Origin: Escherichia coli
Lineage (GTDB): Bacteria > Pseudomonadota > Gammaproteobacteria > Enterobacterales > Enterobacteriaceae
Direction: 5' to 3' (one strand)
DNA: 64,000 nucleotides
NCBI RefSeq assembly: GCF_003991155.1
Contig: NZ_CP031293.1
The position numbers and the translations under genes were made by a program. Below, one piece after another: positions 3,007-64,000 of the stretch (its first letter is position 1; each line of letters starts with the position of its first letter). The notes under the pieces were generated by a model. That model ran no database searches, was not told where the DNA came from, and saw only the letters and a list, made by a program, of their open reading frames with translations.

Positions 3007-3092
3007 GTAGGCCTGATAAGACGCGCCAGCGTCGCATCAGGCAAATGTACCGGCCCATTGTCGGATGCGGCGCGACCGCCTTATCCGATCTA
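3007..3092. repeat. Pair of REP (repetitive extragenic palindromic) elements
   Basis: GTAGGCCTGATAAGACGCGCCAGCGTCGCATCAGGC and GTCGGATGCGGCGCGACCGCCTTATCCGATCTAC match the REP consensus. Confidence 0.7.
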
Positions 3093-11002: not shown

Positions 11003-11072
11003 AGAGAGAAAACCCCCGCACGTTGCAGGTATGCACCTGACAACATCACGGGGGCTAATCTTGAACCTAGAC
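11003..11072 (-). ncRNA. rdlD: Rdl antisense antitoxin RNA, copy 1
   Basis: Minus-strand sequence GTCTAGGTTCAAGATTAGCCCCCGTGATGTTGTCAGG...CGTGCGGGGGTTTTCTCT matches the recalled RdlD sequence and ends in a terminator hairpin; ends approximate. Confidence 0.6.
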
Positions 11073-11120
11073 CACTCAAGAATAGCCGCGAAACGTTGTC
11101 ATTACAACACAGGCGGCTAT

Positions 11121-11228
11121 ATGACGCTCGCAGAACTGGGCATGGCCTTCTGGCATGATTTAGCGGCTCCGGTCATTGCTGGCATTCTTGCCAGCATGAT
11201 CGTGAACTGGCTGAACAAGCGGAAGTAA
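11121..11228 (+). CDS. ldrD: Type I toxin Ldr (35 aa: MTLAELGMAFWHDLAAPVIAGILASMIVNWLNKRK), copy 1
   Basis: 35-codon ORF at the 3' end of the repeat; peptide matches the recalled Ldr family sequence. Confidence 0.85.
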   Translation: MTLAELGMAFWHDLAAPVIAGILASMIVNWLNKRK

Positions 11229-11278
11229 CGTGTCAGACGGGCGTCAGGCTGCGGTAATGGCAATTTGCGCCCGGACCA

Positions 11279-11310
11279 GGCCGCAGGGATAAAACTCTGC
11301 GGCCTTTTTC
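11279..11310 (+). terminator. Rho-independent terminator of ldr copy 1
   Basis: GGCCGCAG / CTGCGGCC stem followed by TTTTT. Confidence 0.7.
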
Positions 11311-11485
11311 GTAAGAAAAAGGCAACGGTTGCAAGCGGATAATATTCTGCGGAATGGACAGCACAGAGTGAAGAAGTGACGGATTCCGGAACAGAAAAAC
11401 AGTCGTAGAATCAGCGGCAAGCCGGAAAGGTTCCGGTGAGGCGCAATGTTGCGGGGGCTTTATCCCTGGTGGCATTGGTTGCTGG

Positions 11486-11555
11486 AGAGAGAAAACCCCC
11501 GCACGTTGCAGTTATGCACCTGACAACACCACGGGGGCTAATCTTGACTCTAGAC
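11486..11555 (-). ncRNA. Rdl antisense antitoxin RNA, copy 2
   Basis: Paralogous to copy 1 with a few substitutions; ends approximate. Confidence 0.6.
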
Positions 11556-11603
11556 CACTCAAGAATAGCCGCGAAACGTTGTCATTACAACTCAGGCGGC
11601 TAT

Positions 11604-11711
11604 ATGACGCTCGCAGAGCTGGGCATGGCCTTCTGGCATGATTTAGCGGCTCCGGTCATTGCTGGCATTCTTGCCAGCATGATCGTGAACTGGCTGAACA
11701 AGCGGAAGTAA
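11604..11711 (+). CDS. Type I toxin Ldr, copy 2 (identical peptide)
   Basis: 35-codon ORF identical in amino-acid sequence to copy 1, with one synonymous change. Confidence 0.85.
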   Translation: MTLAELGMAFWHDLAAPVIAGILASMIVNWLNKRK

Positions 11712-11797: not shown

Positions 11798-13477
11798 TTA
11801 TTGCGGGTAAGGCACCCAGTCGCCGCCGTTCAGGCGAACGTACGGTTTATCCTGGTATTGAATAACTACTGCATTTGAGTTCTCGGAGACCGGTGCTGTT
11901 TGTGGCAACCCACTGGTGAGTTTTTTCCAGTCAACATTGTCTTCGGAGAAAATCTTGCCATCAAGAACGCGAACCACCAGATCGGAGATAGCCAAGAAGC
12001 TGCTCGGTTGGTCGATGACAATCGGTGCCCCCTGATGTGGTGCCTTCATGCCGAAGAATTTCACCCCAACGGGGACGTCTGTGATAGACGGGCTAGGGAT
12101 ATCACGTAGGCCAGATACCTGCATTCTGTCGCCCTTCAGCGCGCCGCCGTGTTCCGGCACCACGACCACCATCACTTTACGACCCGATTTCTCCAGTTCA
12201 GTAAAGAAGGCGTCCAGTTCATCAAAGAATTTCTGCGCCCGCGCTTTGTAATCCGCTGTTTTGCTGACGCCCGGATAATGGTTGCCGTCATGCAGTGGAA
12301 GCGTGTTGTAGAACGTGGCACTACGGCTGTTTTTATCTTTTTCGGTAACGTCCAGCCAGCGGTTAAGCACGGCGGTATCGTCATAAACCGGCGAACCATC
12401 AAAGCCCAGCAAAACAACCGGCAGATTTGTTTGATCCATCAATTCGGTCTGCATGCCGCCATTTTCGCGAACTTCTTTCAAAAAACCGCCGAACTGGCCG
12501 TTATGTCCCATCATCAGGTGCTGGGTAAAGCCCAGTTTCGACAGGTTATCAAACAGATAGCAGTCGTTATTTGCCGGTTGATACAGATTAGTGTGCGAAG
12601 TCTGCCCGCAGCTGGCGCGCAGTAAACGGATCGCCGCCGGGCCACTGTAGGAGGTGGCGGAGTTAAAGTTCTTGAACTCAATATCGAAATGCGACCACAG
12701 CGGATGCGACATCAACCCGGCGGCTTCAATATCCGACCAGGAAAGCGAACAGATATTAATCACCAGTAGTTCAAATGGCTGAGCATCAGCGGGCAGCGAA
12801 GACGGGAAGATTGATTTACGTTTCGCCTCCGCGTTATAGAAATTATTCAGCCAGGCGTTAAGGTTCGCCGTTGTTGGCGGTGCAGTTTGTGCGGGCATAT
12901 CACCCACTACCGGTGCGCCACCCGTCGCCGCAACGGTTGCCGCTGCGTTACCGCCCGTCGTTGTTACAGTGGTCGTTGGTTGACCGGCTGGCCACAAGGA
13001 GAAACTTGGTCCCGCCAGGGTAAGTACGTTCAGCCATAGCAGAATGGCAACCACAAAAACGGTAATGCGAATCCATTGTGACAGGAATAACCAGGCCACT
13101 AATAAAACAAAAATGGCCCCAATCATCTGCCAGTTAATAAAGCGTGTGACAAGGTCGATTAAATAATCGGTACTGAACCCCGCCACCTGCGAACCCTGGC
13201 TCATTATGCTTTCCGGGCCAGGCAACCAGGTGTCATGCCAGAACAAAGCAAAGCCGATCGGCAGGGCAATCCAGTGGCGTAAGCGATGCAGGCTGTAGCG
13301 CGGAATGGGCATCAGCAGAAACGCGGCAAACACCAGATTGAGGAGCGGATGGAAGTTAAGATATCCCGCCCACAACAGGCCGAACTTAACCAGAAAATAG
13401 AAGTTCCAGCCGGAAAGGCCGCGCCAGTATTGCCAGAGGGAAGAAGGCATGGCGGTATTTTGCGTAAATTGAGTCAT
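11798..13477 (-). CDS. bcsG: Cellulose phosphoethanolamine transferase BcsG
   Basis: 559-aa ORF with N-terminal transmembrane segments and a sulfatase-like domain; last gene of bcsEFG. Confidence 0.95.
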
Positions 13478-13665
13478 TTTTTGGTTGCCCTGGCTTTTTC
13501 CGTGCGGCGTAACGTCCCGGCCGGTTTAACATAACGAGGTTTAGCAAAGAACAAACGTAAGGTGTCGCGAATGCGTCGCAAAGAGTGCCGCGCCAGATAG
13601 CCCAGCGGGAAAAATATCAGTGCGCAAACGACAATAATTTCAATGATATCGCTGATGGTCATCAT
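13474..13665 (-). CDS. bcsF: Cellulose biosynthesis small membrane protein BcsF
   Basis: 63-aa ORF with one transmembrane helix, start/stop-coupled to bcsE and bcsG. Confidence 0.9.
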
Positions 13666-15233
13666 GATGAGCGCTCCACAGCATCATCTAACAGTCGCAT
13701 TGGTTCTGGTATTCGTCGCCAGTGGCGACCATCGTGCTCGGCATTGATGACCGGTTTAGAACTTTGCGTTAAAGGCAGCGGCATGCCCCATTGTTCTGGG
13801 GCAAGCAGGCGCATCTGCACCAGCTCGGCACTGATTTGATCATCTTCAAACCAGACCATACGGTTTGAGAAAATGTCGCCAGTAGGCAATGGGAAAATAT
13901 GATTCAACGCGGTATCCAGATCGTTAATCCGACAGAATGAGAGAAACAGCACCAGCCGATTACCGCCAATGGTCATGATATCGCCGGTGCGATTAGGGCG
14001 ACATAGCGTCAGGGCTTGCTCAACGCGGATACCCGGTACCGGACGTAGGGCAACCAGAACGCCTTTACCGTGGGCAGGTAATAGAGGGTTATTCATCATG
14101 TTGTTGACGGCATTACAGAACACATCCCACTTCTGGAAACCACGCAGTTTGAGCGGCTGGGTCATTGACAGCAAGGTAGTGATATCTTCCGGCACATAGC
14201 GACTAAACTTCTGCCCTTGCACGCTTTCGATCATCGTCAGACAGCGGGAGAGTGGGGCATTCCATGGGATAACCATATTTGCACCGCAGGCCAATAACAA
14301 ACGTTCATCGGTGGCGCGCAGGCTAGCGGTATTTTCCCGTACGAGGATTTTCATCGCACTACCGCGCTGGCGACGCAGAGTATGAATGCTGCGGGCCAGT
14401 GGCTCGATTTGCGCATTTTGTTGTAAAGAAAAGACCACCGTCGCCGCCTGAGCGGTACGGGCTTCATTAAACAGGACTTCGTTATTGTTGAACAGTTGCC
14501 AGTGTTCCGATAGCGGCGGCGCACCTTCAAGTACAGAAACATTACTCAGAATGCGTTTTTCGTCGCTGCGTGGTTGGATTTCCGCCTCTTGGTGTTGAAC
14601 TAATGTCCAGCAACCATTTTGTTGCTGAACGCTAAGCTGCTGACGGGCGCTGACCCCTTTTTCGTTGCACCAGAAAGCAATATCCAGCAAATGTTGGTCG
14701 CCCTGAAAACGCAAACTGGCAAGACCAAAAAGTGACCGGTATTCCTCAAGTAACAATGAAAATTGTTTATCGTTATTATTTCCGGAATTAATTACCAAAA
14801 GCGAACAATGGTTTAGCCGGCTCCATTTATTCATTTTATCCAACCATGAGCGAAGCCGCTCGGCAGGAATGTTTTGCCATGCATTATTTGCGCAAACAAG
14901 AATAAAAAGGTAATTATGGGGATCAATAGAACACTGCAAATCACGGGCCAAATAGTATAGACCTTTTTCATGATTTAGCATCGAAAATAATGTTATTTTT
15001 TCCGGCCCTTGAGAATCATCTAATTGAAAGATTTTCGCCGGATCGCTGTCCATGCTAATGACCGCGACGTGTGCGGTTTCAGCCTGGGATGCAATTGTTT
15101 GATTCGCCAGACTGATAGCATCTTCATGGCGATCGACGTTAAACCACCAGACGCCGCCTGCTGGCATATGTCGCAGCTCATCCCATAATGATGAGATACC
15201 GATAGAGAATACAGGGTCCACAATGTCCCTCAT
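13662..15233 (-). CDS. bcsE: Cyclic-di-GMP-binding cellulose biosynthesis protein BcsE
   Basis: 523-aa ORF divergent from bcsR; recognised by context and recalled sequence. Confidence 0.95.
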
Positions 15234-15504
15234 GTCAACATTTTGTCTGATTATCAGTTTACTAGCGAAAGCTAAGAAATAAACCTACCATTGAAATTAA
15301 AACTTATCAGATTTAGCATGTGAATCAATTTAGCAGGTCACAAGACGTGTGATTTTAGTCTTTTCGTTTTTAACTTTTTTTGTTGCGTAACGGAAAGTCA
15401 AAAAGTGAGCAAATTCCCGTCTCGCCGTAAACAATAAACCGGCGAAATGCTCACGGTTAGAATTGTCTCATGAACGGTGCGGTTATTTCATAGGGATCAA
15501 GCAA

Positions 15505-15693
15505 ATGAATAACAATGAACCAGATACTCTGCCTGATCCCGCGATAGGCTATATCTTCCAGAATGATATTTTGGCGTTAAAGCAGGCATTTTCACTGCCT
15601 GATATTGATTATGCCGATATTTCCCAACGCGAACAGTTGGCCGCGGCATTAAAACGCTGGCCGTTGCTGGCAGAGTTTGCGCAACAAAAGTAG
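15505..15693 (+). CDS. bcsR: Cellulose biosynthesis regulator BcsR (YhjR)
   Basis: 62-aa product MNNNEPDTLPDPAIGYIFQ... from the internal ATG of ORF 15463..15693. Confidence 0.85.
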   Translation: MNNNEPDTLPDPAIGYIFQNDILALKQAFSLPDIDYADISQREQLAAALKRWPLLAEFAQQK

Positions 15694-15704
15694 GGGATTG
15701 GTGA

Positions 15705-16457
15705 ATGGCCGTACTGGGATTGCAGGGGGTGCGGGGAGGCGTGGGGACAACAACCATCACCGCCGCATTAGCCTGGTCATTACAAATGTTGGGAGAAAAT
15801 GTCCTGGTGGTCGATGCCTGCCCGGACAACTTGTTGCGCCTGTCATTTAACGTTGATTTTACCCACCGTCAGGGCTGGGCCAGAGCTATGCTGGATGGCC
15901 AGGACTGGCGTGACGCTGGGTTGCGCTATACCTCGCAACTCGATTTGCTGCCTTTTGGTCAGTTATCCATTGAAGAACAAGAAAATCCACAGCACTGGCA
16001 AACCCGGCTGAGCGATATTTGCTCCGGCTTACAGCAACTAAAAGCCAGCGGGCGTTACCAGTGGATTTTAATTGACTTACCGCGTGATGCCTCACAGATA
16101 ACCCACCAGCTGCTGAGTTTGTGCGATCACTCGCTGGCAATCGTCAATGTGGATGCCAACTGCCATATCCGACTGCATCAGCAAGCGCTGCCGGATGGCG
16201 CGCATATTTTGATTAATGACTTCCGTATCGGCAGTCAGGTTCAGGACGATATTTACCAGCTTTGGTTGCAAAGCCAGCGCCGATTACTGCCAATACTCAT
16301 TCATCGTGATGAAGCGATGGCTCAATGCCTGGCGGCTAAGCAACCAGTCGGTGAATACCGCAGTGATGCGCTGGCGGCTGAAGAGATACTGACGCTGGCT
16401 AACTGGTGCCTGTTGAACTATTCCGGGCTGAAAACGCCAGTCGGGAGTGCATCATGA
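15705..16457 (+). CDS. bcsQ: Cellulose synthase localisation ATPase BcsQ, intact
   Basis: Uninterrupted 250-aa ORF; codon 6 is TTG (Leu); ParA/MinD-like P-loop GVRGGVGTTT. Confidence 0.95.
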   Translation: MAVLGLQGVRGGVGTTTITAALAWSLQMLGENVLVVDACPDNLLRLSFNVDFTHRQGWARAMLDGQDWRDAGLRYTSQLDLLPFGQLSIEEQENPQHWQTRLSDICSGLQQLKASGRYQWILIDLPRDASQITHQLLSLCDHSLAIVNVDANCHIRLHQQALPDGAHILINDFRIGSQVQDDIYQLWLQSQRRLLPILIHRDEAMAQCLAAKQPVGEYRSDALAAEEILTLANWCLLNYSGLKTPVGSAS

Positions 16458-19078
16458 GTATCCTGACCCGGTGGTTGCTTATCCCGCCGGTCAACGCGCG
16501 GCTTATCGGGCGTTATCGCGATTATCGTCGTCACGGTGCGTCGGCTTTCAGCGCGACGCTCGGCTGTTTTTGGTTGATCCTGGCCTGGATTTTTATTCCG
16601 CTGGAGCACCCGCGCTGGCAGCGTATTCGCGCAGAACATAAAAACCTGTATCCGCATATCAACGCCTCGCGTCCGCGTCCGCGTCCGCTGGACCCGGTCC
16701 GTTATCTCATTCAAACATGCTGGTTACTGATCGGTACATCGCGCAAAGAAACGCCGAAACCGCGCAGGCGGACATTTTCAGGTCTGCAGAATATTCGTGG
16801 ACGTTACCATCAATGGATGAACGAGCTGCCTGAGCGCGTTAGCCATAAAACACAGCATCTCGATGAGAAAAAAGAACTCGGCCATTTGAGCGCCGGGGCG
16901 CGGCGGTTGATCCTCGGTATCATCGTCACCTTCTCGCTGATTCTGGCGTTAATCTGCGTTACCCAGCCGTTTAACCCGCTGGCGCAGTTTATCTTCCTGA
17001 TGCTGCTGTGGGGTGTAGCGCTGATCGTACGGCGGATGCCGGGGCGCTTCTCGGCGCTAATGTTGATTGTGCTGTCGCTGACCGTTTCTTGCCGTTATAT
17101 CTGGTGGCGCTACACCTCTACGCTGAACTGGGACGATCCGGTCAGCCTGGTGTGCGGGCTTATTCTGCTGTTCGCCGAAACGTACGCGTGGATTGTGCTG
17201 GTGCTCGGTTACTTCCAGGTGGTATGGCCGCTGAATCGTCAGCCGGTGCCATTGCCGAAAGATATGTCGCTGTGGCCGTCGGTGGATATCTTTGTCCCGA
17301 CTTACAACGAAGATCTCAACGTGGTGAAAAATACGATTTACGCCTCGCTGGGTATCGACTGGCCGAAAGACAAGCTGAACATCTGGATCCTTGATGACGG
17401 CGGCAGGGAAGAGTTTCGCCAGTTTGCGCAAAACGTGGGGGTGAAATATATCGCCCGTACCACTCATGAACATGCGAAAGCGGGCAACATCAACAATGCG
17501 CTGAAATATGCCAAAGGCGAGTTCGTGTCGATTTTCGACTGCGACCACGTACCAACGCGATCGTTCCTGCAAATGACCATGGGCTGGTTCCTGAAAGAAA
17601 AACAGCTGGCGATGATGCAGACGCCGCACCACTTCTTCTCACCGGACCCGTTTGAACGCAACCTGGGACGTTTCCGTAAAACACCGAACGAAGGCACGCT
17701 GTTCTATGGTCTGGTGCAGGACGGCAACGATATGTGGGACGCCACCTTCTTCTGCGGTTCATGTGCGGTGATTCGCCGTAAACCGCTGGATGAAATTGGC
17801 GGCATTGCTGTCGAAACGGTAACTGAAGATGCGCATACTTCTCTGCGTTTGCACCGTCGTGGCTATACCTCCGCGTATATGCGTATTCCGCAGGCGGCGG
17901 GGCTGGCGACCGAAAGTCTGTCGGCGCATATCGGTCAGCGTATTCGCTGGGCGCGCGGGATGGTGCAAATCTTCCGTCTCGATAACCCGCTCACCGGTAA
18001 AGGGCTGAAGTTTGCTCAGCGGCTGTGCTATGTCAACGCCATGTTCCACTTCTTGTCGGGCATTCCACGACTGATCTTCCTGACTGCGCCGCTGGCGTTC
18101 CTGCTGCTGCATGCCTACATCATCTATGCGCCAGCGTTGATGATTGCCCTGTTCGTGCTGCCGCATATGATTCATGCCAGCCTGACCAACTCGAAGATCC
18201 AGGGCAAATATCGCCACTCTTTCTGGAGTGAAATCTACGAAACGGTGCTGGCGTGGTATATCGCACCACCGACGCTGGTGGCGCTGATTAACCCGCACAA
18301 AGGCAAATTTAACGTCACCGCCAAAGGTGGACTGGTGGAAGAAGAGTACGTCGACTGGGTGATCTCGCGGCCCTACATCTTCCTTGTTCTGCTCAACCTG
18401 GTGGGCGTTGCGGTAGGCATCTGGCGCTACTTCTATGGCCCGCCAACCGAGATGCTCACCGTGGTCGTCAGTATGGTGTGGGTATTCTACAACCTGATTG
18501 TTCTTGGCGGCGCAGTTGCGGTATCGGTAGAAAGCAAACAGGTACGCCGATCGCACCGCGTGGAGATGACGATGCCCGCGGCAATTGCCCGCGAAGATGG
18601 TCACCTCTTTTCATGTACCGTTCAGGATTTCTCCGACGGTGGTTTGGGGATCAAGATCAACGGTCAGGCGCAGATTCTGGAAGGGCAGAAAGTGAATCTG
18701 TTGCTTAAACGCGGTCAGCAGGAATACGTCTTCCCGACCCAGGTGGCGCGCGTGATGGGTAATGAAGTTGGGCTGAAATTAATGCCGCTCACCACCCAGC
18801 AACATATCGATTTTGTGCAGTGTACGTTTGCCCGTGCGGATACATGGGCGCTCTGGCAGGACAGCTATCCGGAAGATAAGCCGCTGGAAAGTCTGCTGGA
18901 TATTCTGAAGCTCGGCTTCCGTGGCTACCGCCATCTGGCGGAGTTTGCGCCTTCTTCGGTGAAGGGCATATTCCGTGTGCTGACTTCTCTGGTTTCCTGG
19001 GTTGTATCGTTTATTCCGCGCCGCCCGGAGCGGAGCGAAACGGCACAACCATCGGATCAGGCTTTGGCTCAACAATGA
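16454..19078 (+). CDS. bcsA: Cellulose synthase catalytic subunit BcsA
   Basis: MSILTRWLL... start overlapping the bcsQ stop (ATGA); glycosyltransferase-2 motifs and C-terminal PilZ domain; 874 aa. Confidence 0.95.
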   Translation: MSILTRWLLIPPVNARLIGRYRDYRRHGASAFSATLGCFWLILAWIFIPLEHPRWQRIRAEHKNLYPHINASRPRPRPLDPVRYLIQTCWLLIGTSRKETPKPRRRTFSGLQNIRGRYHQWMNELPERVSHKTQHLDEKKELGHLSAGARRLILGIIVTFSLILALICVTQPFNPLAQFIFLMLLWGVALIVRRMPGRFSALMLIVLSLTVSCRYIWWRYTSTLNWDDPVSLVCGLILLFAETYAWIVLVLGYFQVVWPLNRQPVPLPKDMSLWPSVDIFVPTYNEDLNVVKNTIYASLGIDWPKDKLNIWILDDGGREEFRQFAQNVGVKYIARTTHEHAKAGNINNALKYAKGEFVSIFDCDHVPTRSFLQMTMGWFLKEKQLAMMQTPHHFFSPDPFERNLGRFRKTPNEGTLFYGLVQDGNDMWDATFFCGSCAVIRRKPLDEIGGIAVETVTEDAHTSLRLHRRGYTSAYMRIPQAAGLATESLSAHIGQRIRWARGMVQIFRLDNPLTGKGLKFAQRLCYVNAMFHFLSGIPRLIFLTAPLAFLLLHAYIIYAPALMIALFVLPHMIHASLTNSKIQGKYRHSFWSEIYETVLAWYIAPPTLVALINPHKGKFNVTAKGGLVEEEYVDWVISRPYIFLVLLNLVGVAVGIWRYFYGPPTEMLTVVVSMVWVFYNLIVLGGAVAVSVESKQVRRSHRVEMTMPAAIAREDGHLFSCTVQDFSDGGLGIKINGQAQILEGQKVNLLLKRGQQEYVFPTQVARVMGNEVGLKLMPLTTQQHIDFVQCTFARADTWALWQDSYPEDKPLESLLDILKLGFRGYRHLAEFAPSSVKGIFRVLTSLVSWVVSFIPRRPERSETAQPSDQALAQQ

Positions 19079-19088
19079 TGATAACGCG

Positions 19089-21428
19089 ATGAAAAGAAAA
19101 CTATTCTGGATTTGTGCAGTGGCTATGGGGATGAGTGCGTTCCCCTCTTTCATGACGCAGGCGACGCCAGCAACGCAACCACTGATCAATGCTGAGCCAG
19201 CTGTAGCCGCCCAGACGGAACAAAATCCGCAGGTGGGGCAAGTGATGCCAGGCGTGCAGGGCGCTGATGCCCCCATCGTGGCGCAGAACGGTCCTTCGCG
19301 TGATGTGAAGCTGACCTTTGCGCAAATTGCGCCGCCGCCGGGCAGCATGGTGCTACGTGGCATTAACCCGAACGGCAGCATTGAGTTTGGTATGCGCAGC
19401 GATGAAGTGGTGACGAAGGCGATGCTCAACCTCGAATACACGCCATCGCCATCGTTACTGCCTGTCCAGTCGCAGTTAAAGGTTTATCTCAATGATGAGC
19501 TGATGGGCGTGCTGCCAGTGACCAAAGAACAGTTGGGTAAAAAAACGCTGGCGCAAATGCCCATTAACCCACTGTTTATTACCGACTTCAACCGTGTGCG
19601 GCTGGAGTTTGTCGGCCATTATCAGGACGTGTGCGAAAACCCGGCCAGCACCACGCTTTGGCTGGATGTTGGGCGGAGCAGTGGACTGGATTTGACCTAT
19701 CAGACCCTGAATGTGAAGAATGACCTGTCACACTTCCCGGTACCATTCTTTGACCCGCGTGATAACCGCACCAACACCTTGCCGATGGTCTTTGCGGGTG
19801 CCCCGGATGTTGGGCTCCAACAAGCATCTGCCATTGTCGCCTCGTGGTTTGGTTCGCGTTCTGGCTGGCGTGGGCAGAACTTCCCGGTGCTCTATAACCA
19901 ACTGCCGGATCGCAATGCCATTGTTTTTGCCACTAATGACAAACGGCCGGACTTCCTGCGCGATCATCCGGCGGTAAAAGCCCCGGTGATTGAAATGATC
20001 AACCATCCACAGAATCCTTACGTCAAACTGCTGGTGGTCTTTGGTCGTGACGACAAAGACCTGTTGCAGGCAGCGAAAGGTATCGCTCAGGGTAACATTC
20101 TGTTCCGTGGTGAAAGCGTGGTAGTGAATGAAGTGAAACCGCTGCTACCGCGTAAGCCGTACGATGCGCCGAACTGGGTGCGTACCGATCGTCCGGTCAC
20201 CTTTGGTGAACTGAAAACCTATGAAGAACAGTTACAATCCAGCGGTCTTGAGCCAGCAGCGATTAACGTTTCGCTAAATCTGCCGCCGGATCTCTACCTG
20301 ATGCGCAGTACCGGCATTGATATGGATATCAACTATCGCTACACCATGCCGCCGGTGAAAGACAGTTCGCGGATGGATATCAGCCTGAATAACCAGTTCC
20401 TGCAATCCTTCAACCTGAGCAGTAAACAGGAGGCGAACCGCCTGCTGCTGCGTATTCCGGTATTACAAGGTTTGCTGGATGGCAAAACGGATGTCTCTAT
20501 TCCGGCGCTGAAACTGGGCGCGACCAACCAGTTGCGGTTCGACTTTGAGTATATGAACCCGATGCCGGGCGGTTCGGTGGATAACTGTATTACCTTCCAG
20601 CCGGTGCAGAATCATGTGGTGATTGGTGACGACTCCACCATCGACTTCTCGAAGTATTACCACTTCATCCCGATGCCGGATCTACGCGCCTTTGCTAACG
20701 CGGGCTTCCCGTTCAGCCGGATGGCGGATCTGTCACAAACCATCACCGTGATGCCGAAAGCGCCTAACGAAGCACAGATGGAAACCTTGCTGAATACTGT
20801 TGGCTTTATCGGTGCGCAGACGGGCTTCCCGGCGATTAACCTGACGGTGACCGATGATGGCAGCACTATTCAGGGCAAAGATGCCGACATCATGATCGTC
20901 GGTGGTATCCCGGACAAACTGAAAGACGACAAGCAGATCGACCTGTTGGTGCAGGCGACCGAAAGCTGGGTGAAAACGCCGATGCGCCAGACCCCGTTCC
21001 CCGGCATTGTACCGGACGAGAGCGATCGCGCGGCAGAAACTCAGTCAACGCTGACCTCTTCCGGTGCGATGGCAGCGGTGATTGGCTTCCAGTCGCCGTA
21101 TAACGACCAGCGTAGCGTGATTGCGCTGCTGGCAGATAGCCCACGCGGTTATGAAATGCTTAACGATGCGGTGAACGATAGCGGCAAACGCGCCACCATG
21201 TTCGGTTCGGTCGCGGTGATCCGCGAGTCCGGTATCAATAGCCTACGCGTTGGCGACGTCTATTACGTTGGCCATCTGCCGTGGTTCGAACGCTTATGGT
21301 ATGCGCTGGCAAACCATCCGATTCTGCTGGCGGTGCTGGCGGCAATCAGCGTCGTGCTGCTGGCATGGGTACTGTGGCGTTTGCTGCGTATTATCAGCCG
21401 TCGTCGTCTTAACCCGGATAACGAGTAA
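19089..21428 (+). CDS. bcsB: Cellulose synthase periplasmic subunit BcsB
   Basis: MKRKLFWICAVAMG... signal peptide; 779 aa; C-terminal transmembrane anchor. Confidence 0.95.
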   Translation: MKRKLFWICAVAMGMSAFPSFMTQATPATQPLINAEPAVAAQTEQNPQVGQVMPGVQGADAPIVAQNGPSRDVKLTFAQIAPPPGSMVLRGINPNGSIEFGMRSDEVVTKAMLNLEYTPSPSLLPVQSQLKVYLNDELMGVLPVTKEQLGKKTLAQMPINPLFITDFNRVRLEFVGHYQDVCENPASTTLWLDVGRSSGLDLTYQTLNVKNDLSHFPVPFFDPRDNRTNTLPMVFAGAPDVGLQQASAIVASWFGSRSGWRGQNFPVLYNQLPDRNAIVFATNDKRPDFLRDHPAVKAPVIEMINHPQNPYVKLLVVFGRDDKDLLQAAKGIAQGNILFRGESVVVNEVKPLLPRKPYDAPNWVRTDRPVTFGELKTYEEQLQSSGLEPAAINVSLNLPPDLYLMRSTGIDMDINYRYTMPPVKDSSRMDISLNNQFLQSFNLSSKQEANRLLLRIPVLQGLLDGKTDVSIPALKLGATNQLRFDFEYMNPMPGGSVDNCITFQPVQNHVVIGDDSTIDFSKYYHFIPMPDLRAFANAGFPFSRMADLSQTITVMPKAPNEAQMETLLNTVGFIGAQTGFPAINLTVTDDGSTIQGKDADIMIVGGIPDKLKDDKQIDLLVQATESWVKTPMRQTPFPGIVPDESDRAAETQSTLTSSGAMAAVIGFQSPYNDQRSVIALLADSPRGYEMLNDAVNDSGKRATMFGSVAVIRESGINSLRVGDVYYVGHLPWFERLWYALANHPILLAVLAAISVVLLAWVLWRLLRIISRRRLNPDNE

Positions 21429-21434
21429 TTGAAG

Positions 21435-22541
21435 ATGAATGTGTTGCGTAGTGGACTCGTGACGATGCTGCTGCTGGCTGCCTTTAGTGTTCAGGCAGCC
21501 TGCAACTGGCCTGCCTGGGAGCAGTTCAAAAAGGATTACATCAGTCAGGAAGGGCGCGTCATTGACCCCAGCGACGCGCGTAAAATCACCACTTCCGAAG
21601 GGCAAAGTTACGGCATGTTCTTTGCCCTGGCGGCTAACGACCGTGCAGCTTTCGATAATATTCTCGACTGGACGCAGAACAATCTCGCTCAGGGTTCTTT
21701 AAAAGAACGTTTGCCCGCATGGCTGTGGGGCAAGAAAGAGAACAGTAAGTGGGAAGTGCTGGACAGCAATTCGGCCTCCGATGGTGATGTCTGGATGGCC
21801 TGGTCGTTGCTGGAGGCGGGGCGTTTGTGGAAAGAGCAGCGTTATACCGACATCGGCAGCGCGTTGTTAAAACGTATTGCGCGGGAGGAAGTGGTGACGG
21901 TGCCTGGGCTGGGTTCCATGTTGTTGCCGGGCAAAGTGGGATTTGCAGAGGATAACAGCTGGCGTTTTAACCCCAGCTACCTGCCGCCGACGCTGGCGCA
22001 GTATTTCACCCGCTTTGGCGCGCCGTGGACTACGCTGCGCGAAACCAATCAACGTTTATTGCTGGAAACCGCCCCGAAAGGCTTTTCGCCAGACTGGGTG
22101 CGCTATGAGAAAGACAAAGGCTGGCAGCTAAAAGCCGAAAAAACATTGATCAGCAGCTACGACGCGATCCGCGTTTACATGTGGGTAGGCATGATGCCTG
22201 ACAGCGATCCGCAAAAAGCGCGGATGCTCAACCGGTTTAAACCGATGGCGACATTCACCGAGAAAAACGGCTATCCGCCAGAAAAAGTGGATGTGGCTAC
22301 GGGGAAAGCGCAGGGTAAAGGACCGGTCGGTTTTTCTGCCGCCATGCTGCCCTTTTTACAAAACCGCGATGCACAGGCCGTTCAGCGCCAGCGCGTGGCC
22401 GATAACTTTCCCGGCAGCGATGCCTATTACAACTATGTGCTGACCCTGTTTGGACAAGGCTGGGATCAACACCGTTTCCGCTTCTCGACAAAAGGTGAGT
22501 TATTACCTGACTGGGGCCAGGAATGCGCAAATTCGCACTAA
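21435..22541 (+). CDS. bcsZ: Endo-1,4-beta-glucanase BcsZ (GH8)
   Basis: [21 protein letters not shown] signal peptide; 368 aa from the ATG at 21435. Confidence 0.9.
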
Positions 22542-26077: not shown

Positions 26078-28066
26078 TTGCGCGTAAGTCGCTCGTTAAC
26101 AATCAAGCAGATGGCAATGGTGGCAGCCGTTGTCCTGGTGTTCGTTTTTATTTTTTGCACCGTTTTGCTGTTCCATCTGGTCCAGCAGAATCGCTATAAC
26201 ACGGCTACGCAACTGGAAAGCATTGCTCGCTCTGTCCGCGAACCCTTATCTTCTGCCATTTTGAAAGGCGATATTCCCGAAGCGGAAGCTATTCTTGCCA
26301 GCATTAAACCGGCAGGCGTGGTCAGCCGTGCCGATGTGGTGCTGCCTAACCAGTTCCAGGCGCTGCGTAAAAGTTTTATTCCAGAGCGTCCGGTGCCGGT
26401 AATGGTTACTCGCCTGTTTGAGCTACCGGTGCAAATCTCGCTGGGCGTTTACTCGCTGGAACGTCCGGCAAACCCGCAGCCAATTGCCTATCTGGTGCTA
26501 CAGGCGGATTCCTTCCGCATGTATAAGTTCGTGATGAGCACCCTCTCAACGTTAGTGACCATTTACTTACTTTTGTCGTTAATATTGACGGTGGCGATTA
26601 GCTGGTGCATTAACCGCCTGATTTTGCATCCATTACGCAATATTGCTCGCGAACTTAACGCCATCCCAGCCCAGGAGCTTGTTGGTCACCAACTGGCATT
26701 ACCGCGTCTGCATCAGGACGATGAAATCGGTATGTTGGTGCGCAGTTACAACCTCAACCAGCAATTGCTGCAGCGCCATTATGAAGAACAGAACGAAAAT
26801 GCGATGCGCTTCCCGGTGTCGGATTTGCCGAACAAAGCCTTGCTGATGGAGATGCTGGAGCAGGTGGTGGCGCGTAAACAAACCACCGCGCTGATGATCA
26901 TCACCTGTGAAACCCTGCGTGATACTGCGGGTGTGCTGAAAGAGGCGCAACGAGAAATTCTGCTGCTGACGCTGGTGGAAAAACTCAAATCGGTACTGTC
27001 GCCACGTATGATCCTCGCGCAGATTAGCGGTTATGACTTTGCTGTCATTGCCAACGGTGTACAGGAACCGTGGCACGCAATCACTTTGGGTCAGCAAGTG
27101 CTCACTATCATGAGCGAGCGCCTGCCGATTGAACGTATTCAACTCCGTCCGCACTGTAGCATTGGCGTGGCGATGTTCTACGGCGATCTCACCGCCGAAC
27201 AGCTTTACAGTCGCGCTATTTCTGCGGCATTTACCGCTCGCCATAAAGGCAAGAATCAGATTCAGTTCTTTGATCCGCAGCAGATGGAAGCCGCCCAACA
27301 GCGGTTGACGGAAGAGAGCGATATCCTTAATGCACTGGAAAATCATCAGTTTGCGATTTGGTTACAGCCACAGGTCGAGATGACCAGCGGTAAACTGGTC
27401 AGTGCGGAAGTGTTACTGCGTATCCAGCAACCGGATGGCAGTTGGGATCTGCCGGATGGCTTAATCGATCGCATTGAATGCTGTGGGCTGATGGTTACCG
27501 TTGGTCACTGGGTGCTGGAAGAGTCCTGTCGACTGCTTGCTGCCTGGCAAGAGCGCGGCATTATGCTGCCCTTGTCGGTAAACCTCTCAGCGCTGCAACT
27601 GATGCACCCGAATATGGTGGCGGATATGCTGGAACTGTTAACCCGCTATCGCATTCAGCCGGGAACACTGATTCTGGAAGTGACAGAAAGCCGACGTATT
27701 GACGACCCTCATGCTGCGGTGGCAATCCTCCGTCCGCTGCGCAATGCCGGAGTTCGGGTGGCGCTGGATGATTTCGGCATGGGCTATGCAGGGCTGCGTC
27801 AGCTGCAGCATATGAAATCGTTGCCAATCGACGTACTGAAAATCGACAAAATGTTTGTTGAAGGCTTGCCGGAAGATAGCAGCATGATTGCTGCAATTAT
27901 CATGTTGGCGCAAAGCCTGAACTTACAAATGATTGCCGAAGGCGTGGAGACTGAAGCACAACGCGACTGGCTGGCAAAAGCGGGCGTTGGTATTGCCCAG
28001 GGCTTCCTTTTTGCTCGCCCACTCCCTATTGAAATCTTCGAAGAGAGTTACCTGGAAGAAAAGTAG
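26078..28066 (+). CDS. pdeK: Cyclic-di-GMP phosphodiesterase PdeK (YhjK; HAMP-GGDEF-EAL)
   Basis: 662-aa ORF with TTG start and N-terminal transmembrane segments; EAL-domain motifs (EVTE, DDFG) visible in the C-terminal part. Confidence 0.9.
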
Positions 28067-32506: not shown

Positions 32507-33274
32507 ATGATAAGGCAGGTTATCCAGCGAATAAGCAACCCTGAAGCAAGCATCGAGAGCTTGCAGGAACGGCGTTTTTGGTTGCAGTGTGAGCGTGCTT
32601 ACACCTGGCAGCCGATCTATCAAACATGCGGGCGGTTAATGGCCGTGGAGCTATTAACGGTGGTCACGCATCCCTTGAACCCTTCGCAACGCCTGCCGCC
32701 GGATCGCTATTTTACTGAAATCACCGTTAGCCATCGGATGGAGGTTGTGAAAGAGCAGATTGATTTGCTGGCGCAAAAAGCCGACTTCTTTGTAGAGCAC
32801 GGCCTGCTGGCATCGGTCAATATTGATGGCCCTACGCTCATCGCCCTGCGTCAGCAACCAAAAATCCTGCGCCAGATTGAGGATCTTCCCTGGCTGCGTT
32901 TCGAACTGGTGGAACACATCCGCCTGCCGAAAGATTCAACCTTTGCCTCGATGTGTGAATTTGGCCCGCTGTGGCTGGATGATTTTGGTACCGGGATGGC
33001 AAATTTCTCTGCACTAAGTGAAGTGCGTTATGACTACATCAAAATCGCGCGAGAACTGTTTGTGATGCTGCGTCAGTCGCCGGAAGGACGCACACTCTTT
33101 TCTCAGCTTTTACATCTAATGAATCGCTATTGTCGCGGGGTGATTGTCGAGGGCGTAGAAACGCCGGAAGAGTGGCGTGATGTTCAGAACTCGCCCGCAT
33201 TCGCCGCACAAGGCTGGTTTCTTTCACGCCCGTCACCGATAGAAACGCTGAATACGGCGGTTCTGGCGCTATAA
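32507..33274 (+). CDS. pdeH: Cyclic-di-GMP phosphodiesterase PdeH (YhjH; EAL domain)
   Basis: 255-aa product MIRQVIQRISNPEAS... from the internal ATG of ORF 32462..33274. Confidence 0.9.
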   Translation: MIRQVIQRISNPEASIESLQERRFWLQCERAYTWQPIYQTCGRLMAVELLTVVTHPLNPSQRLPPDRYFTEITVSHRMEVVKEQIDLLAQKADFFVEHGLLASVNIDGPTLIALRQQPKILRQIEDLPWLRFELVEHIRLPKDSTFASMCEFGPLWLDDFGTGMANFSALSEVRYDYIKIARELFVMLRQSPEGRTLFSQLLHLMNRYCRGVIVEGVETPEEWRDVQNSPAFAAQGWFLSRPSPIETLNTAVLAL

Positions 33275-47497: not shown

Positions 47498-47603
47498 AAA
47501 AAAAACCCGGCATAGGGGACCGGGAAGAGGATAGTCTGCCGTCTCCAGACTAATAAACCGTTATAACACTCCCTGTTGGCACGGGAAACTTTGTGCTCTC
47601 AGT
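47498..47603 (-). ncRNA. gadY: GadY small RNA
   Basis: Minus-strand sequence ACTGAGAGCACAAAGTTTCCCGTGCCAACAGGGAGTGTTATAACGG...CCTATGCCGGGTTTTTTTT matches the recalled GadY sequence and ends in a terminator. Confidence 0.8.
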
Positions 47604-47849
47604 AAGTTAAATATAACTTTTACTGGAAATAAGATCAGCCATTTTTTTATAAACATAAGCTATACGCTGTGCGAAAATATATTCGTGTTGCATTTACTTA
47701 TTGTCAATTAACTGTTATGCAAAACTACTTTGTGGATAAATTTTGGTCCTACCAAATCTGGCAGTTTTTGCGCTAAGAAACAGTCTGGCATCATTTCATT
47801 AGTATACTGAAATTGAAATAATCGCAGTAATGAAATATAAGGGATAGTC

Positions 47850-61558: not shown

Positions 61559-62392
61559 TTATTGCGGCCAAAGCTGCTGGTGTAAAGACTCAACGACATC
61601 AGCAATACGCGGACCCATTCCCAGAATCAGGTTTTGATCAACGGTGATAATGCGCTGGTTCTTCCAGGCGGCGGTGTGGGTAATTCCGGCAATAGAACGT
61701 AGCCGATTAATATCGCCATCGACCATTTGTGAGGTGACGACAATCACTTCAGGGTTAGCCGCAATCAGCGATTCCGCGCTGTAGCTTTTGTACTGCTGGT
61801 GGGTAGCGACGTTTTCTGCTCCGGCAAGCGAAAGAATGGCGTCCGCGACGCTGCCTTTACCGGCAACCTGTGGCGCACTTCCGCCTGCGGAGAGAATAAA
61901 CATGGCTTTAACCGGGGCTTTTTTGGCCGCCACGTTTTGCTGTACTCGCTCCAGGCGTTGGTTGATCTGTGTCACCAGCGCCTCGCCTTGTTCAGGAACC
62001 TGTAGCGTTTTTGCCAGTTGGCGAATGTTGGCGTACATCTGCTCAAGGGTGGCAGGCACACGCGGCAGGGTGACGACGTTGACTTTCTGCGCTCGTAGTT
62101 GGTCGAGCACAATTTGTGGCCCGGCATCCTGCCAGGTAATTACGCTATCCGGGCGAAGTGACAAAATGCCTTCGCTGCTGAGTTGTTTCCAGTAACCAAT
62201 ATGCGGCAGTCTGGCGGTTTCTGGTGGATAAGATGTCGTTTCATCGACACCAACCACGCGTTTGCCAGCGCCCATCGCGTAGATTAGCTCCGTCAGCGAT
62301 CCTCCTGCGACCACGATACGTTCGGCAGCCGTTACGCTAAAAGTCCAGCTAAGAGCCAGTAATGCCGTAAACAATTTTTTTCGTTTTACCAT
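61559..62392 (-). CDS. chuT: Periplasmic haemin-binding protein ChuT (ShuT)
   Basis: Start placed at MVKRKKLFTALLALSWTFSVTAA (Sec-type signal peptide); an upstream ATG at 62473 is an alternative; the ORF-track start at 62551 lies upstream of the Fur box and is unlikely. Confidence 0.75.
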   Translation of the reverse strand: MVKRKKLFTALLALSWTFSVTAAERIVVAGGSLTELIYAMGAGKRVVGVDETTSYPPETARLPHIGYWKQLSSEGILSLRPDSVITWQDAGPQIVLDQLRAQKVNVVTLPRVPATLEQMYANIRQLAKTLQVPEQGEALVTQINQRLERVQQNVAAKKAPVKAMFILSAGGSAPQVAGKGSVADAILSLAGAENVATHQQYKSYSAESLIAANPEVIVVTSQMVDGDINRLRSIAGITHTAAWKNQRIITVDQNLILGMGPRIADVVESLHQQLWPQ

Positions 62393-62497
62393 GGTCTTCG
62401 CGGCAGAGACCACGGCTGAAATACATAACGTTAGTGGGGAAAAAAGAAACGGCCTGGTGATGATCCTTGGCATAATGTGAGAACTCTTATCAAATTG

Positions 62498-62519
62498 AGA
62501 ATGATCATGATTATCATTT
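62498..62519. promoter_or_regulatory. Fur box in the chuT promoter region
   Basis: GAGAATGATCATGATTATCATT resembles the Fur consensus GATAATGATAATCATTATC. Confidence 0.6.
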
Positions 62520-62847
62520 GAGTTATATATGAAATACAACCGTCGATTCAATACGCACGGCGTTACAAGCGTATTTATTTTTGATTTTTATCAAGATGCT
62601 TCGTCAGCTAATGTTCTTGTTACCGATTAAATTTCAGCGCGGGAAAAAGCTGAGAACCCGGAGATATCGCGGCTTGCAGAGCAAAGAGAAGAGAAAATTA
62701 TCACTGTTAACGACAACGTTTTGTGATGAGGTTGTGGGGGGATAGTCATAAACACAGGATGGTTTTCTGGATGCTGGATAGATTTCATAACCCCCTGTTT
62801 ATTGTGTTAATGGCGGTTAAAAAAAGCTTGATCATAAAAAATTGATC

Positions 62848-62866
62848 GATAATAATTCTCATTATC
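62848..62866. promoter_or_regulatory. Fur box in the chuA promoter region
   Basis: GATAATAATTCTCATTATC matches the Fur consensus closely. Confidence 0.65.
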
Positions 62867-63124
62867 ACGTTTGAGTTTAACAAAATATGACATCATGGAT
62901 AACAAAATCATATCTTTTGTAAGGGAAAACGCACAGCACTCTTCACTTCAGACGTGGCGTACTACTTTGCCTGACAAAGAGGGCGTGCTTTTGCTGAATT
63001 ATCAGAAATATTCGGCAATTTTACGGGATATATACGCTAATAGCTTCCCGTGGTGATATCTAATCATTTGAATTGTAAATAAATTTATTTTTCGCCAGCC
63101 ACCCCGGTATTAACCCAGGCAGCC

Positions 63125-63156
63125 AGCATTTTTTATTTTCCTCATGGAGAATCGCT
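63125..63156 (+). promoter_or_regulatory. Candidate FourU-type RNA thermometer around the chuA Shine-Dalgarno
   Basis: U-runs (TTTTTTATTTTCC) directly 5' of CATGGAGA (the SD) could pair with it. A FourU thermometer in the shuA/chuA leader is established knowledge; the fold was not computed. Confidence 0.35.
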
Positions 63157-64000
63157 ATGTCACGTCCGCAATTTACCTCGTTGCGTTTGAGTTTGTTGGC
63201 TTTGGCTGTTTCTGCCACCTTGCCAACATTTGCTTTTGCTACTGAAACCATGACCGTTACGGCAACCGGGAATGCACGTAGTTCCTTCGAAGCGCCTATG
63301 ATGGTCAGCGTTATCGACACTTCCGCTCCTGAAAATCAAACGGCTACTTCAGCCACCGATCTGCTGCGTCATGTTCCTGGAATTACTCTTGATGGTACCG
63401 GACGAACCAACGGTCAGGATGTAAATATGCGTGGCTATGATCATCGCGGCGTGCTGGTTCTTGTCGATGGTGTTCGCCAGGGAACGGATACCGGACACCT
63501 GAATGGCACTTTTCTCGATCCGGCGCTGATCAAGCGTGTTGAGATTGTTCGCGGACCTTCAGCATTACTGTATGGCAGTGGCGCGCTGGGTGGAGTGATC
63601 TCCTACGATACGGTCGATGCAAAAGATTTATTGCAGGAAGGACAACGCAGTGGTTTTCGTGTCTTTGGTACTGGCGGCACGGGGGACCATAGCCTGGGAT
63701 TAGGCGCGAGCGCGTTTGGGCGAACTGAAAATCTGGATGGTATTGTGGCCTGGTCCAGTCGCGATCGGGGTGATTTACGCCAGAGCAATGGTGAAACCGC
63801 GCCGAATGACGAGTCCATTAATAACATGCTGGCGAAAGGGACCTGGCAAATTGATTCAGCCCAGTCTCTGAGCGGTTTAGTGCGTTACTACAACAACGAC
63901 GCGCGTGAACCAAAAAATCCGCAGACTGTTGAGGCTTCTGATAGCAGCAACCCGATGGTTGATCGTTCAACAATTCAACGCGATGCGCAGCTTTCTTATA
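63157..64000 (+). CDS. chuA: TonB-dependent outer-membrane haem receptor ChuA (ShuA), 5' portion; continues beyond the window
   Basis: Open frame from the ATG at 63157 (MSRPQFTSLRLSLLALAVSATLPTFAFA, TonB box ETMTVTA) to the window edge without a stop; SD GGAG 7 nt upstream. Confidence 0.9.
   Translation, partial: MSRPQFTSLRLSLLALAVSATLPTFAFATETMTVTATGNARSSFEAPMMVSVIDTSAPENQTATSATDLLRHVPGITLDGTGRTNGQDVNMRGYDHRGVLVLVDGVRQGTDTGHLNGTFLDPALIKRVEIVRGPSALLYGSGALGGVISYDTVDAKDLLQEGQRSGFRVFGTGGTGDHSLGLGASAFGRTENLDGIVAWSSRDRGDLRQSNGETAPNDESINNMLAKGTWQIDSAQSLSGLVRYYNNDAREPKNPQTVEASDSSNPMVDRSTIQRDAQLSY

Follow-up and report, generated by a model that had tools for sequence, protein, structure and literature searches.

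Laboratory K-12 strains of Escherichia coli carry a stop codon early in bcsQ, and the question raised by this locus is whether its bcsQ and the remaining cellulose synthesis (bcs) genes are intact and, if so, what this says about cellulose production. The window, by which we mean the whole 64-kb stretch of DNA that was analysed, extends from the yhjX/eptB side, by way of dpp, bcs and gad/hde, as far as chuA. The reading that we favour, with a probability of roughly 0.93, is that it holds an ordinary wild-type Bcs locus that would confer the capacity for phosphoethanolamine-cellulose, the only departure being an Arg-Pro (RP) expansion in BcsA.

bcsQ and its sixth codon

15705..16457, + strand: bcsQ, MinD/ParA-like ATPase subunit of the cellulose secretion system; ATG start and 250 uninterrupted codons in the ORF list and translation
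15720..15722, + strand: bcsQ codon 6, TTG (Leu); TAG in K-12

A preliminary description of this DNA had presented bcsQ as an uninterrupted ORF of 250 codons with TTG (Leu) at codon 6, where K-12 has a TAG stop. The first point was borne out by the ORF list, the translation and a Pfam match over the full length, and the second by direct comparison with MG1655 (NC_000913.3), in which codon 6 is TAG and the gene is annotated as a pseudogene. The gene opens with ATG GCC GTA CTG GGA TTG, and codon 6 was the sole mismatch to MG1655 within the 120 nt compared around the site. The window thus has TTG and not the K-12-type pseudogene allele (TAG at codon 6, 17 T>A). Across the whole gene, 16 nucleotide differences from K-12 were counted, and the encoded protein changes at three positions (stop6Leu, M197I and E207Q).

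We then considered the identity of the encoded protein. BcsQ matched the Pfam family CBP_BcsQ (PF06564) over profile positions 1-234 of 234 (E=8.8e-114), and its score of 379.3 bits against a curated cut-off of 21.3 places it within this family of SIMIBI ATPases. Its end-to-end alignment with the crystallised E. coli BcsQ (PDB 6YBU/6YAR) was identical at 246/250 positions, and the match to MinD (4V02) was weaker than that to the solved BcsQ. The N-terminal segment MAVLGLQGVRGGVGTTT, which holds both Leu6 and the P-loop, was identical to that of the crystallised protein; the P-loop itself, GVRGGVGTTT, occupies residues 8-17 exactly as in PDB 6YBU. The gene was also found where bcsQ is expected in the operon, between bcsR (15505-15693) and bcsA (from 16454). 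Judged by the Pfam and crystallised-protein matches, the ORF at 15705-16457 is clearly a genuine gene. Work on strain 1094, as cited in PMC5944007, describes ATP binding, dimerisation with BcsR and polar localisation of BcsQ and a requirement for it in cellulose synthesis.

To assess how frequent the two codon 6 alleles are, exact matches of a 61-mer centred on this codon were counted in a set of 5,426 complete E. coli genomes. The TTG version found in the window was encountered in 3,552 of them and the K-12 (TAG) version in 348-349, while most other genomes mismatched the TTG 61-mer at a different position. Genomes with TAG, comprising the 60 first listed and 60 evenly sampled from 348, all looked like laboratory strains of K-12, strains derived from these or transconjugants; in the even sample every chromosome measured 4.46-4.76 Mb, and most bore laboratory, K-12 or transconjugant labels. 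Over a 1.2-kb segment around bcsQ (15400-16600), the window was matched at 100% identity by more than 30 wild isolates of human, cattle, poultry, dog and wastewater origin. On these counts TTG is the normal, majority state of E. coli and its contrast with K-12 is trivial, and the TAG allele appears to be confined to K-12 laboratory derivatives.

The occurrence of the K-12 TAG allele in natural isolates of the ST10 complex was also considered and rejected, since the 60 genomes sampled evenly from the 348 with an exact TAG match gave no evidence of it outside the K-12 lineage. A BcsQ nonsense mutation is reported to be common to ST167, ST617 and ST744 (PMC10881479), and it is presumably different from the K-12 TAG.

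The remaining bcs genes and adjoining phosphodiesterases

15505..15693, + strand: bcsR (yhjR), 62 aa, first gene of the bcsRQABZC operon; colinear with K-12, one substitution (V23L); Pfam PF10945
16454..19078, + strand: bcsA, cellulose synthase catalytic subunit, 874 aa; colinear with K-12 except for a 6-bp insertion; GT2 and PilZ domains
19089..21428, + strand: bcsB, periplasmic subunit, 779 aa; colinear with K-12, 8 substitutions; Pfam PF03170, E=1.2e-223
21435..22541, + strand: bcsZ, GH8 endoglucanase, 368 aa; colinear with K-12, 3 substitutions; full-length Pfam PF01270
22523..25996, + strand: bcsC, outer-membrane TPR/porin subunit, 1157 aa; colinear with K-12, 8 substitutions; Pfam BCSC_C and TPR
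13662..15233, - strand: bcsE, c-di-GMP-binding regulator, 523 aa; colinear with K-12, 7 substitutions; full-length Pfam PF10995; RTGD at 415
13474..13665, - strand: bcsF, membrane protein, 63 aa; 100% identical to K-12; Pfam PF11120
11798..13477, - strand: bcsG, phosphoethanolamine transferase, 559 aa, intact; colinear with K-12, 6 substitutions; Pfam PF11658; Ser278 present
15234..15504: divergent bcsE-bcsR intergenic (promoter) region, 271 nt (272 nt in K-12)
26078..28066, + strand: pdeK (annotated hmsP), c-di-GMP phosphodiesterase adjoining the operon, 662 aa, intact; Pfam GAPES3, HAMP, GGDEF and EAL
32507-33274: pdeH, intact and identical to the copy in strain MRY15-117

When the nine bcs genes (bcsRQABZC and bcsEFG) were aligned from start to stop with their K-12 counterparts, all lengths were equal except that of bcsA (874 versus 872 aa). 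No internal stops, frameshifts or insertion sequences were found in these nine alignments, and the sole indel was in frame. The Pfam matches of the nine proteins were all full length, with 0-8 substitutions each relative to K-12. The earlier statement that the other bcs genes are full length therefore stands, although the two-codon expansion of bcsA had been overlooked in it, and its mention of bcsG and bcsE was confirmed by intact genes with Ser278 and RTGD in place. It had also allowed for a missed frameshift or stop in bcsQ or bcsA as the finding that would overturn it; the alignment with K-12 revealed none in either gene.

The sequence motifs expected of a working synthase were present as well. 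In BcsA, the catalytic motifs DxD, TED and QxxRW were found as DCD at 362, TED at 457 and QRIRW at 495, and the c-di-GMP-binding PilZ motifs RxxxR and DxSxxG as RRSHR at 698 and DFSDGG at 725. Both the catalytic Ser278 of BcsG and the N-terminal BcsG-docking domain of BcsA were identified, this domain carrying the RP insertion and the substitution A93T. The arrangement is that of E. coli-type Bcs loci, with divergent and uninterrupted bcsRQABZC and bcsEFG. The bcsQ stop and the bcsA start overlap by 4 nt as ATGA, which would fit translational coupling of the two genes. Relative to K-12, the region between bcsE and bcsR differed at five positions, namely four SNPs and one A fewer in the run directly 5' of the bcsR ATG; its part at 15400-15504 was identical in many wild strains, and the whole region was identical in MRY15-117.

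The intact bcsQ and the other eight bcs genes thus represent an ordinary and already well-described state, found in nearly all E. coli other than the laboratory strains of K-12 descent. An intact bcsQ is the E. coli default, the nonsense allele of K-12 has counted as a textbook exception since 2013, and the finding has little significance of its own.

PdeK has been described as a local c-di-GMP sink at the cellulose synthase (PMC7397504). The copy in the window was colinear with K-12, with three substitutions that all lie outside the EAL-domain motifs. One of its changes, G599E, was considered as a hit on an EAL-domain catalytic motif and rejected because the position lies outside the motifs.

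The hexanucleotide repeat of bcsA

16668..16688, + strand: hexanucleotide tandem repeat in bcsA, CGTCCG x3; Tandem Repeats Finder, period 6, 3.5 copies, 100% match

Comparison with K-12 and strain 2016C-3878 traced the additional length of bcsA (2,625 bp versus 2,619 bp in K-12) to an in-frame 6-bp expansion of this repeat, which encodes RPRPRP (codons ~73-78) in place of RPRP at K-12 residues 73-76. Because the expansion is in frame, the statement that the gene is intact is unaffected by it. Among complete E. coli genomes, two copies of CGTCCG were found in about 5,280, three copies in 18 and one copy in 9, and the 18 genomes with three copies are scattered over lineages that include O157:H7 and O55:H7. 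The exact 874-aa BcsA was encountered on 16 public contigs, which come from a metagenome and from isolates assembled independently of one another. In an 8.6-kb segment around bcsA, two of the 16 were identical to the window throughout, while two others (L008 and L010) encode the same 874-aa BcsA on another DNA background, where bcsA departs from that of the window at 29 positions, all of them synonymous because the encoded protein is identical. The same protein on a different background indicates that the three-copy expansion recurs independently. The bcsA of L008 and L010 also illustrates strong purifying selection on BcsA.

The possibility that the expansion, or indeed the intactness of the locus, is an assembly or sequencing artefact deserves mention given that short tandem repeats are classic sites of indel errors. 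We regard its probability as negligible, and for the expansion we reject it outright: the 874-aa protein recurs on 16 contigs and in a second lineage with the 29 synonymous differences, and elsewhere in the locus the window matches several complete genomes exactly.

A further question is whether the expansion has any effect on BcsA. Its N-terminal domain of about 140 residues docks the BcsG trimer, with BcsG contacts at BcsA residues 8-10, 47-50 and 92-93 and with helix alpha5 at residues 81-88 (PMC11379886). All four differences between the BcsA of the window and that of K-12 fall in this domain. An RP insertion at 73-76 would therefore lengthen the alpha4-alpha5 loop and alter no reported BcsG contact. 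The expansion is most likely a neutral slippage polymorphism.

It was noted separately that the substitution A93T (window 16730-16732) is common to the whole lineage and lies at residues 92-93, a predicted contact to the nearest BcsG protomer (PMC11379886).

Near-identical strains and disruptions of bcsG

L001, 7120-10078; L004, 599-3717; L005, 1082-4200: bcsG of close relatives, corresponding to window 11798-13477

Over about 61 kb, the window and MRY15-117 (NZ_AP017617.1) aligned with 0 mismatches and were set apart only by the 6-bp gap in bcsA and one IS621. Several near-identical genomes carry a disrupted bcsG, so an intact copy of this gene is not universal in the lineage. In 2016C-3878, bcsG is interrupted by IS621, and in UID2309220009 and CUVET19-1704 it is interrupted at about codon 122 by IS4 in opposite orientations. 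The match of EC0585 falls into three pieces like that of CUVET19-1704, and this match pattern points to an IS4 beneath it. Since the copies of several clone-mates are broken by insertion sequences, the whole bcsG of the window has a small added value.

These disruptions bear on an alternative in which the RP expansion shifts the docking geometry of BcsG and so changes how extensively the glucan is modified with phosphoethanolamine, without halting its synthesis. The insertion does lie between alpha4 and alpha5 of the domain by which BcsA recruits the BcsG trimer (PMC11379886), it is the only change relative to MRY15-117 in the 61 kb apart from the one IS621, and bcsG is broken by IS621 or IS4 in clone-mates. 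The reported contacts, however, are at 8-10, 47-50 and 92-93 and not at 73-76, and the presence of one to three copies in scattered lineages fits a tolerant loop with simple slippage. We therefore consider such an effect highly improbable, and slightly more improbable still is the broader proposal that the repeat is a recurrent slippage site that tunes BcsA-BcsG docking and hence the degree of modification. Were that proposal true, the repeated loss of bcsG to IS621 and IS4 in this clone would hint at selection on the modification of cellulose rather than on its synthesis. The repeat polymorphism of BcsA may serve as a minor lead for studies of BcsA-BcsG docking.

Capacity for cellulose production and its expression

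Experiments on K-12 derivatives give the codon 6 difference its meaning. AR3110 is W3110 in which bcsQ codon 6 was changed from TAG to TTG, and this single change gives cellulose proficiency (PMC7397504; PMC5014196; PMC5944007). Because TAG to TTG alone is sufficient in W3110, the other K-12 bcs alleles must be functional (PMC7397504, PMC5014196), and because TTG is the codon used in the AR3110 repair, the bcsQ of the window has a known functional codon. The preliminary description had given the K-12 stop as polar on bcsA and bcsB; secondary sources bear out only the repair from TAG to TTG, and for the nature of the defect PMC5944007 allows either that BcsQ function is lost or that the stop is polar on the genes downstream.

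The steps by which the locus would act are drawn from the literature on AR3110, a K-12 derivative, and on strain 1094. The window provides a complete wild-type E. coli Bcs locus, with an intact bcsQ leading into bcsA, bcsB, bcsZ and bcsC and with a complete divergent bcsEFG. DgcC would supply c-di-GMP under RpoS/MlrA/CsgD control, BcsA-BcsB would polymerise the glucan, BcsG would add phosphoethanolamine under the control of BcsE/BcsF, and BcsC would export the product; the synthase would require BcsR and BcsQ for its assembly and expression. It is from the uninterrupted genes taken together with this published mechanism that a genetic capacity for phosphoethanolamine-cellulose is predicted.

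Capacity and production are separate matters, and here the preliminary description, which had called the locus fully functional unlike K-12 and predicted that the strain produces cellulose, was only partly upheld. Its reading of the genotype agrees with the nine uninterrupted genes and their motifs, and its step to production goes beyond the window. BL21 and H10407 give no calcofluor signal although all their bcs genes are present and free of premature stops (PMC5944007), so intact bcs genes are insufficient for cellulose. Actual production of the polymer would depend on genes beyond the window: activation of the synthase depends specifically on c-di-GMP made by DgcC (AdrA) under the RpoS/MlrA/CsgD cascade (PMC7397504), and csgD, dgcC, rpoS and mlrA all lie outside the 64 kb.

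An intact locus in a strain that is cellulose-negative or weak under standard conditions therefore has to be weighed, the cause being either regulation outside the window (the csgD promoter, rpoS, mlrA, dgcC or phosphodiesterases) or limiting missense changes. Besides the precedent of BL21 and H10407 and the dependence on DgcC, this outcome draws on the nearby pdeK and pdeH, both of which are intact, and on the frequent and convergent loss of cellulose across E. coli sequence types (PMC10881479). The window itself, however, shows no defect; all motifs checked are intact and the bcs promoter region departs from K-12 at only five positions. We consider a negative or weak phenotype possible but unlikely. 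By a rough personal estimate rather than a computed one, cellulose would probably be detectable at 28 C, and this is held with distinctly less confidence than the wild-type reading of the locus. The practical value of the analysis lies in annotation, and the strain is a reasonable candidate for biofilm phenotyping.

Other features of the window

11007-11072 and 11490-11555, - strand: rdlD RNAs
11604-11711 and 11121-11228: ldr ORFs
47493-47606: GadY sRNA, intact, adjoining gadX

Several further features were recorded along the window. Two ldr/rdl type I toxin-antitoxin modules lie in tandem at 11007-11711, compared with one in K-12 (ldrD/rdlD), and a third copy appears to be present in some relatives. 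The gadX gene (~45881-47481) appears to be split by IS1, as judged from the 100% identity with MRY15-117, whose gadX fragments flank an IS1B transposase. At ~3010-3090, just 3' of a tRNA-Pro gene, an uninterrupted naRNA4/REP-type element corresponds to the empty site of the IS621 found in MRY15-117. The chu haem-uptake locus (62000-64000), with the shuA/chuA 5' UTR thermoregulator at 63128-63159, adjoins the hde/gad acid island. Its presence assigns the strain to a chuA-positive phylogroup and not to group A like K-12.

Comparison with known systems

The closest functional counterpart is AR3110, the reference producer of phosphoethanolamine-cellulose, with which the window shares gene order, TTG at codon 6 and nine intact bcs genes (PMC7397504). 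The two differ by nucleotide identities of 96.8-100% per gene and by 0-8 amino-acid substitutions per protein; AR3110 BcsA is without the two-residue insertion, and the window comes from a chuA-positive lineage, unlike AR3110. The MG1655/W3110 locus has the same flanking genes as the window (dpp, yhjV, ldr/rdl, pdeK and dctA), but these strains carry TAG at codon 6 and are cellulose-negative, whereas the window carries TTG. The missense differences between the window and K-12 include BcsZ S63F.

At the level of the single protein, the crystallised BcsQ of the BcsRQ complex (PDB 6YBU, 6YAR, 6YB3) aligned over 250 residues and has the same N-terminal P-loop region, and the window BcsQ departs from it by four substitutions (N172D, M197I, E207Q and K249A). 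At the level of the whole locus, MRY15-117 and its clone-mates (MRY15-131, CS6L, TL20 and CREC-544) have bcsQ, bcsR, bcsE, bcsF, bcsG, bcsB, bcsZ and bcsC identical to those of the window. They differ from it in bcsA, where they have two copies of the hexamer and 872 aa compared with three copies and 874 aa in the window, and MRY15-117 carries an extra IS621 at the site matching window ~3010, which is without it.
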